DNA of 64,000 nucleotides from assembly GCF_963506605.1 (NCBI RefSeq), contig NC_083282.1:21390001-21454000 (forward strand). The letters are read 5' to 3'. Below, piece by piece: positions 13,370 to 21,105 of this stretch. The notes beneath the pieces are model-generated. The model ran no database searches. It saw nothing but the letters and a program-made list of their open reading frames with translations, and had not been told where the DNA came from. Each line of letters begins with the position of its first letter. Within the stretch, counting starts at the first letter, position 1. The translations under genes were made by a program, and so were the position numbers. The stretch comes from Zootoca vivipara. Its lineage: Eukaryota.

Positions 13370-14040
13370 AGGACTATTTTGCCATGCAATATAGTTTTAA
13401 ATCTTGTTCCGATTTGGCAAATTTAGCCATTTTAAATGTGATTCATTTTTTTGTGTGCTGCCAATGTTATTAGTTACTGAAGCAGCACATTTACAGATGA
13501 ATCGAATTCAACTTTAGAAGCTCATTTTCAACAACTTTCATTTATTTAAAGAATTAACATGGCTTCAGATGTGACGCATAATACTACTTCTTTGTTCTGT
13601 TCAAGTTGCTACTATAGCTGTTAAAGTTGTCGCGAAGGAATGCTTCCCGGATGGTGATTCATTGTGATTGTTAAAATGCAGAACTACTGAAAATATAAAC
13701 TATGCTGATTGCAGCCTTAGCTTCAGTGCTGGGGTGGCGGCAGGGAGAAGGAACAGGGTGACATTGCCTGAGCTATTGAGACATATTATTATTAATCCTG
13801 GTGATATATTATATTGCCTTTTGGACTTATCTATTACACCGGGTATCCTTCTGTAACTTTCTCTTATTGCATTTTTTCATCTTCCGACTCCTTCCTAATG
13901 ATCCTTTCCTCAGCCTATAAAGCCCAAACTTTCTTTGCCTTTGTAGATTCTTTGAAAAATCCTTGCTCTTCACTCAATAGCATTTAGGTAGTATATCTTC
14001 CCCCACCCCTGCAACATTCCCATTTAATGAATCAGAGAGA

Positions 14041-14290
14041 CAGTCACACCTCGGTTTAAGTACGCTTCAGTTTGAGTACTTTCAGTTTAAGTACTCCACG
14101 GACCCAGAAGTGTTTACGTCCGGGTTCCGCAGCGCACACATGCGCAGAAGCCACCTGCGCACTTCGCGCATGTGCAGAAGCGCTCTATTGGCGCTTCGCG
14201 CACACGCACTATTGCCGCTCGGATTAAGTACTTTTCGGGGTGCGAATGGCACCCCAGAACCAATTAAGTACTTAACCCGAGGTACCACTG
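14041..14290. mobile_element. Tc1/mariner (Tigger/pogo-like) MITE
   Basis: TIRs cagtcacacctcggtttaagtac / gtacttaacccgaggtaccactg, TA on the right flank, CpG-rich core. Confidence 0.85.
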
Positions 14291-14292
14291 TA

Positions 14293-14542
14293 TAAGAAAA
14301 AAATACTGTAAATGATAATTTTTTTCATCTAAAATACTGTCTGATTTATTTTATAGTACAGTACATTGATTATTGCCTTCATTTTATGGATCAATGGTCT
14401 CGTTAGACAGTAAAATTCGTGTTAAATTGCTGTTTTAGGGGGTGTTTTTCATCGTCTGGAACTGATTAATCCACTTTCCATAACTTTCAATGGCAAAGTT
14501 CACTTCAGGAACCAATAAAGTACTTAACCTGAGGTACCACTG
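14293..14542. mobile_element. Right arm of a longer Tigger-like non-autonomous element
   Basis: Ends in the same TIR aagtacttaacctgaggtaccactg followed by TA. No matching left TIR of its own. Confidence 0.7.
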
Positions 14543-14638
14543 TACTATAATAATAATTTTTTTGGCAACTGCTGTGCTTCAGGGGTATTTTGGGGGCGTG
14601 TGCTTTCTTTTCACTCATCCAATACATAGGAAAAGTGA

Positions 14639-14734
14639 AAGGTATCTGACGAAGTGTGCATTCACACGAAAGCTCATACCAAAATAAAAACTTAGTTGGT
14701 CTTTAAGGTGCTACTGAAGGAATTTTTTTATTTT
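14639..14734 (+). mobile_element. Penelope-like element terminal remnant (copy 1)
   Basis: tatctgacgaagtgtgcattcacacgaaagctcatacc...aacttagttggtctttaaggtgctactg, with a 13-bp TSD ataggaaaagtga (14626-14638 / 14735-14747). Confidence 0.8.
14641..14680 (+). ncRNA. Minimal type I hammerhead ribozyme motif (copy 1)
   Basis: Stem I GGUAU/AUACC, core CUGACGA plus one extra A, stem II GUGUG-CAUU-CACAC, GAA, palindromic AGCU in place of stem III, predicted cleavage after C14675. Activity untested. Confidence 0.75.
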
Positions 14735-14985
14735 ATAGGAAAAGTGAGTGAGCCAAATGTTCAGCCAGTACTTAGTGCGTACACTGCCAGCCGAGAAAGG
14801 GGGAAGCTGCGCAGACCCAGTGGCCGCTTTTGAAATTGGCAAGAGTTGGAGACCAAGGATAATCTGGGCAGGTGGGAAGAGAGCACATTTCTGAAATACA
14901 AGATTAATGATGGGATTTGATCTGTTCAACAACGATGAATGTGGATATAGATGCTGCTTAGAGCCTTAGACTGAAAATCAAGTGT

Positions 14986-15090
14986 ATCTGTGTATCTGAA
15001 GAAGTGTGCATGTACACGAAAGCTCATACCTATGACAAACTTAGTTGGTCTCTAAGGTGCTGCTGGAAGGAATTTTTTATTATTTTGTTT
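14986..15090 (+). mobile_element. Penelope-like element terminal remnant (copy 2), inserted in the SCOC retrocopy
   Basis: Same sequence family as 14639-14734, with a perfect 14-bp TSD tgaaaatcaagtgt (14972-14985 / 15091-15104). Confidence 0.82.
14992..15029 (+). ncRNA. Minimal type I hammerhead ribozyme motif (copy 2)
   Basis: Stem I GUAU/AUAC, core CUGAAGA plus one extra A, stem II GUGUG-CAUG-UACAC (one G-U pair), GAA, AGCU, predicted cleavage after C15025. Confidence 0.72.
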
Positions 15091-15107
15091 TGAAAATCAA
15101 GTGTTTG

Positions 15108-15255
15108 TGGAAGGGGTGGGGGAGGGGAGGTTATTGGTTTGTGAGTGTTTTTCTTGTTTTTATTATGCATTTTGTATTTTAGTTTGTTGTTGTGAACTGT
15201 GCTGAGATCTAAGGGTGAAGGGCAGCATACACATTTTAATAATAATAATAATATC
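15108..15255 (+). mobile_element. L2-type 3' tail inserted in the SCOC retrocopy
   Basis: T-rich tract, then gtgaactgtgctgagatctaagggtgaagggcagcatacac-(aat)n. It separates the SCOC codons ENQV from the rest of the coding sequence. Confidence 0.65.
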
Positions 15256-16016
15256 AATAATCTTTGGGGGGGGGGGAGAACACCACATTGATCAAGTTTT
15301 GGAACTCCAGCACACACCTGAAGATCTGTCTGCAAGAATAGATGCAGCTAAAGAAGAAAACCTGAAACTGTAATCAGAAAAACAACAACAAGTTCTTGGA
15401 CAATACATAGAAAATATCATGCCTGTTGATAGTGTTTTTCAGACTACAGACACAAAAAGCAAACGAAAGTAAGGCACTGGTAACCAAATGGTAACATTGT
15501 ATAGTATTGCTGTTGTTTTTGTTTGATTTTTTAAAATTGCACAGGGCTATACGACTTAAGTTAGTTTGTAGCATCACTGGATTTTTGGAGATTTAATGGT
15601 AGTTCTAGACAATTTTGAAGTTTTTAATGAACAACTGAACAGTGCCAGTACCTGGTATAACCTGAATTCTTGGCTCACACCAGAATCCTTGGTTTGATGC
15701 CAGTTCATTCTTGCAGGTTCAAATATGGCATGTGAACTGAGAGAGCATGGTGGTTGCTTCAGGTCGATAACCCTGGTCTCCACTGGTTCATACATTACAT
15801 TTGCAGCCCAATCCGATGCATGTTTAGAACTAAATTCTACTGTGTCCAGTGAGACTTGCTTTCATATAAGTAAGCACAAAATTACAACTGCGCTCGTGTG
15901 AATGTACATTTCCAGAAGTCCAGGCCAACTCATGTGAGCAAAAGCATAGGGTGGAATTCAATGTCGTGTGAATATTATCATTCTGTCATGCAAGCATTTC
16001 TGCTTACCTGATGGTC

Positions 16017-16157
16017 GAGGGACAGCTCAGCTGGTAGAGCATGAGACTCTTAATCTCAGGGTTGTGAGTTTGAGCCCCACATTGAGTGAGAGATTCCTGC
16101 ATTGCAGAGTTGTCCCTTCCAATGCTACAATTCTGTGATTCTGTGATTCTATTCTAT
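16017..16157 (+). mobile_element. tRNA-Lys-derived SINE with CR1-like tail
   Basis: agctcagctggtagagcatgagactcttaatctcagggttgtgagtttgagccccac, followed by gtcccttccaa and attctgtg repeats. Confidence 0.8.
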
Positions 16158-19137: not shown

Positions 19138-19280
19138 CATAGAGAATCATATTGTAGAGTGGGAAGGGACCACAAGAGTCATCTAGTCCAACCCCCTGCA
19201 ATGCAGGAATCTTTTGCTCCATATGGGGCTCGAACCCACAGCTCTGAGATTACCAGTCTCATGCTCTACCAGCTGAGCTA
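19138..19280 (-). mobile_element. tRNA-Lys-derived SINE with CR1-like tail
   Basis: Reverse complement of the 16017 family: ggaagggaccacaagagtcatctagtccaacc...ggggctcgaacccac...gtctcatgctctaccagctgagcta. Confidence 0.82.
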
Positions 19281-19859: not shown

Positions 19860-21105
19860 CATTTAATTAATTAATTGTTGCATCTATATCCAACCTTTTC
19901 TTCAAGGAGCTCAAGGTGATGTATATGGTTCTCTTTCTTGTAAAGAAGCTGGTAAAATGCAGGCTAGACAATGCTACCATTCAGTGGATTTTTAACTGGC
20001 TGACTGACCGAACCCAAAGGGTGCTCATCAATGGCTCCTTTTCATCCTGGAGACTAGTGACTACTGGGGTGCCACAGGGTTCTGTCTTGGGCCCAATCCT
20101 ATTCAACATCTTTATCAATGACTTGGATGATGGGCTTGAGGGCATCCTGAGCAAGTTTGCAGATGACACCAAATTGGGAGGGGTGGCTAATACCCCAGAG
20201 GACAGGATCACACTTCAAAATGACCTTAACAGATTAGACAACTGGGCCAAAGCAAACAAGATGAATTTTAACAAGGAGAAATGTAAAGTACTACACTTGG
20301 GCAAAAAAATTGAAAGGCACGAATACAGGATGGGTGACACCTGTCTTGAGAGCAGTACATGTGAAAAGGATCTAGGAGTCTTGGTAGACCACAAAGTTGA
20401 CATGAGTCAGCAGTGTAATGCAGCAGCTAAAAAAGCCAATGCAATTCTGGGCTGCATCAATAGGAGTATAGCATCTAGATCAAGGGCACCACAGTTCAAG
20501 AAGGATACTGACAAGCTGGAACGTGTCCAGAAGAGGGCAACGAAAATGGTCAAAGGCCTGGAAACGATGCCTTATGAGGAACGGTTTAGGGAGCTGGGTA
20601 TGTTTAGCCTGGAGAAGAGAAGGTTAAGGGGTGATATGATAGCCATGTTCAAATATATAAAAGGATGTCATATAGAGGAGGGAGAAAGGTTTTTTCTGCT
20701 GCTCCAGAGAAGCGGACACGGAGCAATGGATTCAAACTACAAGAAAGAAGATTCCACCTAAACATTAGAAAGAACTTCCTGACAGTAAGAGCTGTTTGGC
20801 AGTGGAATTTGCTACCAAGGAGTGTGGTGGAGTCTCCTTTTTTGGAGGTCTTTAAGCAGAGGCTTGACAGGCATATGTCAAGAATGCTTTGATGGTGTTT
20901 CCTGCTTGGCAGGGGGTTGGACTGGATGGCCGTTGTGGTCTCTTCCAACTCTACGATTCTACGATTCTATGATTCTTTCTCCCCATTATATCCTCCCAAC
21001 AACTCTGAGAGACTAACTGGCCCAATGTCACTCAGTGAATTTCATGGCTGAGATCTCTCATCTCGCAGGTCCTAGTCCAACCGTCTAATCACTCCACTGC
21101 ATGGT
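19860..21105 (-). mobile_element. Old MIR/Squam3-like SINE split by the CR1 insertion
   Basis: caaggagctcaaggtgatgtatatggttctc (left of the CR1) continues as ccccattatatcctcccaacaactctg...ggcccaatgtcactcagtgaatttcatggctgag...cctagtccaac (right of the CR1). Confidence 0.65.
19939..20976 (+). mobile_element. 5'-truncated CR1 LINE (reverse transcriptase C-terminal part plus 3' UTR)
   Basis: ORF 19916-20761 contains GVPQGSVLGPILFNIFINDL and FADDTKL. Frameshift near 20690, then RFHLNIRKNFLTVR. Tail of attctacg/attctatg octamers. Possible 7-bp TSD tctttct (19932-19938 / 20974-20980). Confidence 0.96.

Follow-up and report, generated by a model that had tools for sequence, protein, structure and literature searches.

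The 64,000-nt window of Zootoca vivipara DNA analysed here contains two minimal hammerhead ribozyme motifs in the same orientation, close to a retrocopy of SCOC. This raises the question of whether the pair constitutes an excision cassette: a sequence-only reading had proposed that any plus-strand transcript could fold into a double hammerhead and cut itself twice, releasing a possibly circularisable 350-nt RNA with host cargo in the manner of a retrozyme. The two motifs are located on the + strand at 14646-14675 and 14996-15025, with a spacing of exactly 350 nt.

14641..14680, + strand: minimal type I hammerhead 1, with a predicted cut after C14675 and no stem III of its own (from sequence and helix count).
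14992..15029, + strand: minimal type I hammerhead 2, with a predicted cut after C15025 and a stem II closed by G-U (from sequence and helix count).

Both motifs carry the CUGAnGA core, the GAA, the palindromic AGCU and C17, with C3 located at 14646 in the first copy and at 14996 in the second. Stem II consists of 5 bp in each case (14654-58/14663-67 in copy 1 and 15004-08/15013-17 in copy 2, the fifth pair of the latter being a G-U wobble), while stem I is one pair shorter in copy 2 (4 bp) than in copy 1 (5 bp), and the AGCU palindromes occupy 14671-74 and 15021-24. The motif description of the sequence-only reading, including positions, core, stems, AGCU followed by C and spacing, was recovered in full. 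One extra A was found per motif (14653 in copy 1, 15003 in copy 2), which PMC4209133 describes as a known trait of the minimal hammerheads (min-HHRs) of Penelope-like elements (PLEs). Indeed, both copies show the set of traits that characterises the PLE minimal type I hammerhead: the core, an extra nucleotide at 9/10.1, G10.1-C11.1, a palindrome at 15-16 and a short stem I. Allowing for up to 3 mismatches, the window contains no third match, and 100 shuffles yielded 0; the motifs are not chance sequence, yet they are not rare either. Running hammerhead covariance models, as had been advised, gave no match to the Rfam hammerhead models at gathering score in the window, nor at E<=10 within 14400-15300. 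It may be that such minimal variants are simply not modelled.

Each motif sits in its own stub of approximately 100 nt. The two stubs can be aligned to one another, unlike their flanks, and each is bordered by its own target-site duplication (TSD).

14626..14638, + strand: left TSD of stub 1, 13 bp, with an exact repeat at 14735-14747.
14639..14734, + strand: stub 1, a 5'-truncated, tail-less pLTR end of a Neptune-type PLE, subfamily 1 (92/94 identity to the pLTR of a full-length unit in locus L078).
14735..14747, + strand: right TSD of stub 1 (sequence repeat).
14972..14985, + strand: left TSD of stub 2, 14 bp (sequence repeat; single occurrence in the parent SCOC exon).
14986..15090, + strand: stub 2, a 5'-truncated, tail-less pLTR end of sister subfamily 2, within the SCOC coding sequence (94-99% matches on many contigs; subfamily diagnostics).
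15091..15104, + strand: right TSD of stub 2 (sequence repeat).

As the 14-bp word of stub 2 is found once in the parent SCOC exon, it represents a true target-site duplication. The separate TSDs and the different subfamilies uphold the earlier view that two independent insertions are present, and the derivation of both stubs from a PLE pLTR confirms the proposed PLE-type identity of the hammerheads. Homology of stub 1 to the PLE pLTR starts at 14642. Using stub 2 as the query, 1,229 candidates were obtained, and the 40 that were scored proved to be 93-99% identical, often with an inverted piece alongside. Stub 2 aligns to the parent pLTR with subfamily differences; the full-length ORF was seen in the subfamily-1 parent (L078). 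The stub 3' ends, at +88 and +94, correspond to the tail-less class and mark both as ordinary 5'-truncated copies; over their ~100 nt each, neither stub contains an ORF, a tail or an inverted arm.

Full-length units of the parent element are 3,030 nt in length and arranged head to tail, each with a single hammerhead; this 3,030-nt spacing of hammerheads was found at two loci, one of them with opposed arms. The parent ORF (L078:4200-6902, 901 aa from the first Met) matches PF00078 (RVT_1, E 3.8e-12) and PF01541 (GIY-YIG, E 5.9e-05), both above cut-off, and longer copies of the stub family run upstream into the GIY-YIG frame. A CX4CxxC linker can be read in the ORF translation beside the RT and the C-terminal GIY-YIG, and the first ATG lies ~100 nt beyond the cut site. 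The ORF with RT and GIY-YIG, the linker, the tandem pLTR units, the inverted copies and the optional tail together identify an EN+ PLE of Neptune/Nematis type. According to PMC8557442, a CX2-5CxxC linker distinguishes the Neptune and Nematis clades. Neptune is preferred over Nematis because, of the two, it is the linker-bearing clade that bioRxiv 10.64898/2026.07.22.740005 reports from vertebrates; the parent is hence a putative Neptune-type PLE on the basis of linker and vertebrate host. All 123 scored copies, from 9,586 family candidates, were 99-100% identical with no stops in the matched part, indicating that the family is young. Loci L078-L081 (G000:C2:103027001-103039000; C9:19330001-19345000) hold this very young Neptune-type PLE as 3,030-nt tandem units with open 925-codon frames, with many near-identical intact copies.

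The copy ends were inspected in a sample of 30. The 3' ends at 30 loci picked by the downstream motif are bimodal, with 15/30 at +71 to +96 and 15/30 at +121 to +140, which is the tail signature of PLEs, while the 5' ends of 30 sampled copies are scattered from -785 to +32. An origin of the stubs as run-off copies from a pLTR transcription start 5' of the hammerhead is not supported by this spread in an unbiased sample, with only 5/30 ends within -23 to +1. Copies starting at the cleavage site were likewise discarded as a candidate, given that 0/30 begin at +30 and four begin at +26 or +32. In a set of 98 motifs (loci L002-L115), 37 and 57 belong to the two subfamilies and 4 fit neither assignment; most changes in these motifs occur at the CpG spanning the stem II end and G12 (12 G-to-A, 8 C-to-T). 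Such CpG-centred changes are as expected from methylation decay, and not from selection on the catalytic core.

The host sequence around the second stub is a retrocopy of SCOC, which is in addition interrupted by an older repeat.

14774..14985, + strand: SCOC retrocopy, 5' part, with exon 1 at 14774-14876 (77%), exon 2 at 14880-14953 (82%) and the start of exon 3 (blastn against locus L066).
15101..15265, no strand assigned: third, older dispersed repeat interrupting the retrocopy and ending in (TAA)n (74-80% matches at many loci, 1100 candidates).
15279..15650, + strand: SCOC retrocopy, 3' part, with the end of exon 3, exon 4 and part of the 3' UTR (84-87% to the parent).

All four parent SCOC exons are colinear in the retrocopy at 77-87% identity, and the three introns are absent. 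The intronless exon joins, together with a stop codon (in frame at 15371-15373) and two insertions in the frame, define a processed pseudogene of SCOC; Pfam PF10224 matches it at E 1e-05 and 8e-04, both below the curated cut-off. The 5' part includes the old start codon region. An SCOC retrocopy between the two hammerheads, as earlier proposed, is confirmed by the intronless exons and the alignment to the parent, with the refinement that only copy 2 lies inside it. Copy 1 is upstream, its right TSD ending at 14747, ~26 nt before the first parent-aligning base at 14774. The predicted 350-nt fragment would comprise 59 nt from stub 1, the TSD, ~26 nt of flank, ~210 nt from the 5' part of SCOC and a final 40 nt from stub 2. 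A search with the spacer returned just two candidates, namely the spacer itself and the SCOC parent gene on contig C9.

Several neighbouring features of the window were noted. The repeat at 15101-15265 resembles a LINE 3' end; its matches include 11 copies of equal score on contig C5 (3.30-4.21 Mb), most of them spaced by ~100 kb, which points to a large tandem segmental array. Nested short, high-copy elements with terminal inverted repeats occupy 14040-14546 and are presumably DNA-transposon MITEs. An open frame of 296 aa at 19871-20761 (RVT_1, E 6.4e-17) represents a LINE fragment, and Rfam RF00005 matches that have no acceptor stems, at 16024-16080 (+) and 19223-19280 (-), are probably tRNA-derived SINEs. 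With respect to host genes, a Pfam scan of 60/100 window ORFs of at least 90 aa gave only LINE RT above cut-off, a scan that short exons would escape.

A comparison with DNA contigs of related organisms bears on the timing of the insertions. The retrocopy is present in organisms B and C, with 14-15 differences over 227 nt, as is the older (TAA)n repeat at 15101-15265. One contig from each (2,226 and 2,209 nt) aligns from exactly 14735, where the right TSD of stub 1 begins, to 14961, and continues for ~1.9 kb upstream. Both contigs show a same-depth indel at 14603, and past 14961 they extend by only 93 or 92 letters; organism B has in addition a same-depth feature at 15108. Organisms B and C thus appear to carry empty sites for both stubs, as read from contig geometry rather than from explicit joints, which would make the pair recent and not conserved. 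In the case of organism A, contigs of samples S3 and S5 enter both stubs by 23-26 letters, consistent with presence of the stubs and under the 31-letter bridging rule.

We estimated how often the arrangement might be expected. The exact hammerhead motif occurs 20,838 times genome-wide (10,374 + 10,464 matches in 1.44 Gb; 0 for a reversed control), and the downstream part of the pLTR has 33,933 matches. Pair frequency was judged from a Poisson estimate, 73 sampled element-centred loci and the first 100 listed motif places. For the 20,838 motifs, the Poisson estimate predicts ~38 pairs on the same strand at distances of up to 350 nt, and 135 at up to 1 kb. Of the sampled loci (some of which overlap), 3/73 contain a same-strand pair no more than 600 nt apart, exceeding the exact-motif Poisson figure of ~0.5, and among the first 100 places, inspected by eye over 2.9 Mb, 3 loci have a neighbour on the same strand within 1 kb. 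Besides chance, local clustering may contribute to the frequency of near pairs; with or without clustering, such same-strand arrangements are common in the genome.

Individual examples illustrate the range of geometries. A same-strand pair 437 nt apart (L025:1500-2030) has the subfamily order of the window and unrelated DNA between its members; another, 598 nt apart (L024:1506-2230), has a second copy with an inverted arm and a 13-bp TSD; and a third pair is 284 nt apart (L099:1280-1600). A complex insertion at L032 (G000:C1:2215300-2217500) contains two inverted hammerhead pairs, separated by 512 nt, and its flank is duplicated in inverted orientation. At L031 (G000:C1:2776500-2781000), a head-to-tail 598-nt array places hammerheads at 1326, 1924, 2522 and 3120. 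Its unit is an internally deleted PLE, in which ~80 nt of ORF start are fused to the ORF end and the whole pLTR with an intact hammerhead, and the array has true retrozyme-like geometry. We considered whether this 598-nt array represents a dispersed family and rejected this, the deletion junction being present 4 times, all at this single locus. A stub of the same family also lies on the opposite strand ~0.9 kb upstream of the parent SCOC exon 1 (L066:1708-1809, G000:C9); its position beside the parent locus too illustrates the density of PLE stubs.

RNA evidence was drawn from three raw runs with the same species label, all from one study, of which ~1.1 Gb (~6%) each was read and whose library type is unlikely to keep small circles. 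At this ~6% depth, the unique spacer (14751-14950) and the stretch 15301-15800 have a depth of 0 in 3/3 raw runs. PLE family RNA is abundant in the same runs and reads pile on the stubs, 98-99% of them continuing into unlike sequence. At the locus-specific letter 14662, the family letter was found in 1,708/1,710, 666/669 and 348/351 reads, demonstrating that the stub reads stem from other copies. The sequence-only reading had itself named a lack of plus-strand transcription as evidence against the cassette, and no such transcription of the locus was seen in the samples and depth examined (three runs, ~6% each). It had further pointed to read ends at the cut sites and to a back-junction as signatures of cleavage. 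The former did not appear, as the family reads of the three raw runs showed no accumulation of ends at 14675 or 15025. For the latter, one near joint was found: in run X21, 4 reads from 2 starts go back 348 nt, from 15022 to 14675, which is 2 nt off the predicted back-junction. This joint lies within repeat sequence common to thousands of copies, has no supporting read in the unique spacer, and is taken as probably a variant copy elsewhere, although it counts to some degree against a silent pair. Contigs of run X18 (presumed RNA) do not cover the spacer and were not counted as evidence.

The proposed double hammerhead can be drawn as a nested structure, with an outer stem I of 6 bp, an AGCU helix of 4 bp, an inner stem I of 4 bp and two 5-bp stems. 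Constraining the RNA to this fold costs 15.7, 22.7 and 26.8 kcal/mol relative to the ensemble for constructs of three lengths. The AGCU:AGCU helix is predicted with a probability of about 0, and 30 shuffled spacers give costs of 14.8-24.6 kcal/mol (median about 16.8), over which the real spacer offers no advantage. For the native 598-nt array, the double fold is 21.3-22.9 kcal/mol uphill. Since native arrays are equally unfavourable, the folding model discriminates poorly and provides no proof against cleavage. The shortest construct has in fact a lower cost than the native 598-nt array (15.7 versus 21.3 kcal/mol), and the outer cross-copy stem I has 6 bp here as opposed to 4 bp in native arrays. 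The predicted 350-nt circle, with a circular MFE of -77.1 compared with -77.9 +/- 4.7 kcal/mol for 40 mononucleotide shuffles, is not more stable than these.

Published activities suggest that the claim of efficient cleavage by dimers of such hammerheads is overstated. Dimeric and trimeric PLE min-HHR constructs are described as having 'some, though low' activity in PMC4209133, and the Xenopus dimers reported in bioRxiv 10.64898/2026.07.22.740005 cleaved in 1/9 cases. For the anole PLE hammerhead, the sections of PMC11167929 drawn on here describe no cleavage without the protein of the element, and state that cleavage is not needed for insertion and that no read ends occur at the site. Efficient cleavage and circles are documented in PMC7229834 for retrozymes with canonical hammerheads. 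By analogy with the anole enzyme, which belongs to a different clade, the RNA excised at the window locus would lack the tail and the ORF start, the region this enzyme needs on its template.

Taken together, we consider it very likely that both hammerheads are inherited parts of separate, recent PLE end-pieces; their proximity is most likely due to chance, and the pair is probably silent, with no function. It is unlikely that chance has nevertheless built a competent double hammerhead, in which case a rare plus-strand transcript would be cut at 14675 and 15025 and free a 350-nt SCOC-bearing RNA as a side effect without function. Every core letter is intact in both copies and the helices of 6, 4, 4, 5 and 5 bp nest; the young family, with its many open 925-codon frames and abundant RNA, may also provide a protein helper, protein-assisted cleavage having been shown for the anole Poseidon PLE in PMC11167929. 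However, the three raw runs contain neither a unique-spacer read nor a pile of read ends at the cut sites, the constrained fold is 15.7-26.8 kcal/mol uphill and no better than with shuffled spacers (albeit in a model that discriminates poorly), and neither stub extends to the tail and ORF start, which would be required by analogy with the anole protein, from a different clade.

We regard as highly improbable a functional or mobile retrozyme-like cassette, from which the 350-nt RNA would be excised, circularised, and retained for a role or re-inserted with its host cargo by the PLE enzyme. Single-copy status of the spacer largely refutes such a cassette, despite a geometry and size like those of animal non-LTR retrozymes (220-240 nt coral units and repeats of 150-450 bp in PMC7229834), the argued derivation of retrozymes from PLE pLTRs (bioRxiv 10.64898/2026.07.22.740005) and the 4-read joint in run X21. 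The locus has no tandem array, the TSDs flank each stub and not the whole unit, the pair is apparently absent in organisms B and C, the predicted circle is no more stable than 40 shuffles, and spacer reads are lacking in the three raw runs. The retrozyme-like unit of the sequence-only reading is consequently unsupported, dozens to hundreds of such pairs being expected in any case. A single event, either a local tandem duplication or one PLE insertion carrying an SCOC piece between two pLTRs (transduction), is just as improbable. The stubs are co-oriented and of similar length, and PMC8557442 reports that PLEs retrotranspose host genes in trans, but the one-event origin is refuted by the two different TSDs, one per stub and the second single in the parent SCOC exon, by the differing subfamily diagnostics and non-aligning flanks, and by the retrocopy itself, which runs on past stub 2 at 13-23% divergence from the parent and is common to organisms B and C, where the stubs seem to be missing.

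Under the preferred reading of two separate PLE end-pieces, an SCOC mRNA would have been retrocopied first, followed by insertion of the (TAA)n-tailed repeat, with both PLE stubs inserted last and in the lineage of the window's species only. The PLE protein, on the model of the PLE literature, would have nicked AT-rich DNA and begun reverse transcription just downstream of the hammerhead, and synthesis would have ended after ~100 nt, as in many copies. If reverse transcription starts there and ends early, the hammerhead is what adjoins the RT start site, and with >20,000 intact motifs in the genome, two copies would repeatedly come to lie on the same strand within a few hundred bases of each other, with host DNA between them.

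In this most likely case the locus matters little, adding two more to tens of thousands of PLE end-pieces. It does advise caution, in that tandem hammerheads in reptile genomes should be checked for TSDs and copy number before they are labelled retrozymes. We think it very unlikely that chance pairs, when transcribed and with PLE protein as a chaperone, cut out or circularise host RNA as raw material for new retrozymes; if true, circular RNAs and new retrozymes would have a further, new way of originating. A limited literature search for chance-built hammerhead pairs around host DNA returned no matching title or abstract start. The young, ORF-intact family, with native 3,030-nt and 598-nt tandem units, offers a better system than the window locus for testing dimer versus protein-dependent cutting, and is also a good experimental system for Neptune transposition.

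Animal non-LTR retrozymes, as presented in PMC7229834 and bioRxiv 10.64898/2026.07.22.740005, share with the window pair the placement of two type I hammerheads on one strand within a few hundred nt, a non-coding nature and PLE-derived ends. These retrozymes are multi-copy tandem repeats of one whole unit, the coral ones having canonical hammerheads and abundant structured circles, in contrast to the unique host DNA of the window spacer, the TSD around each hammerhead, the minimal hammerheads and the lack of RNA seen. No TRF array was found at the locus, and stub similarity is confined to ~100 nt; the spacer matches itself and the SCOC parent only, with one TSD per stub where retrozymes have multi-copy units and a TSD around the whole insertion; and the circular MFE, set against 40 shuffles, is not that of a stable, highly self-paired circle. 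The pair resembles a retrozyme in geometry, and differs from one in tandem unit, copy number and unit-flanking TSD.

Closer likenesses are found among the PLEs. The Anolis carolinensis Poseidon element PAc likewise comes from a lizard and has a hammerhead in its pLTR, two RT start sites that give tailed and tail-less ends, AT-rich targets and, in the sections of PMC11167929 drawn on, no RNA-seq read ends at the cut site. PAc differs in belonging to the Penelope/Poseidon clade and in having an ORF that starts in stem II, whereas the family described here has the linker motif and a first ATG ~100 nt past the cut. EN+ PLEs of Neptune or Nematis type, as described in PMC8557442, resemble the parent family in the RT with C-terminal GIY-YIG, the CX2-5CxxC linker, tandem pLTR units, inverted 5' copies, an optional tail of 30-40 bp and heavy 5' truncation; compared with these, the window copies keep only ~100 nt, with no ORF, tail or inverted arm.

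The pLTR minimal hammerheads of PLEs described in PMC4209133 also have no stem III, a palindromic 15.2/16.2, an extra nucleotide at 9/10.1, G10.1-C11.1 and a stem I of 4-5 bp, and number in the thousands, most of them solo copies left by truncated PLEs; the opposite-strand pairs that inverted insertions produce are a further likeness, and turtles and snakes are among the reported hosts. Stem II has 5 bp in the window as opposed to 7-8 bp in Schistosoma (PMC4209133). The same-strand pairs of that account lie ~3 kb apart around an ORF, while the window holds two solo stubs from separate events around host DNA. The locus most likely represents a known element class in an accidental pairing, with cleavage no more than a candidate activity.
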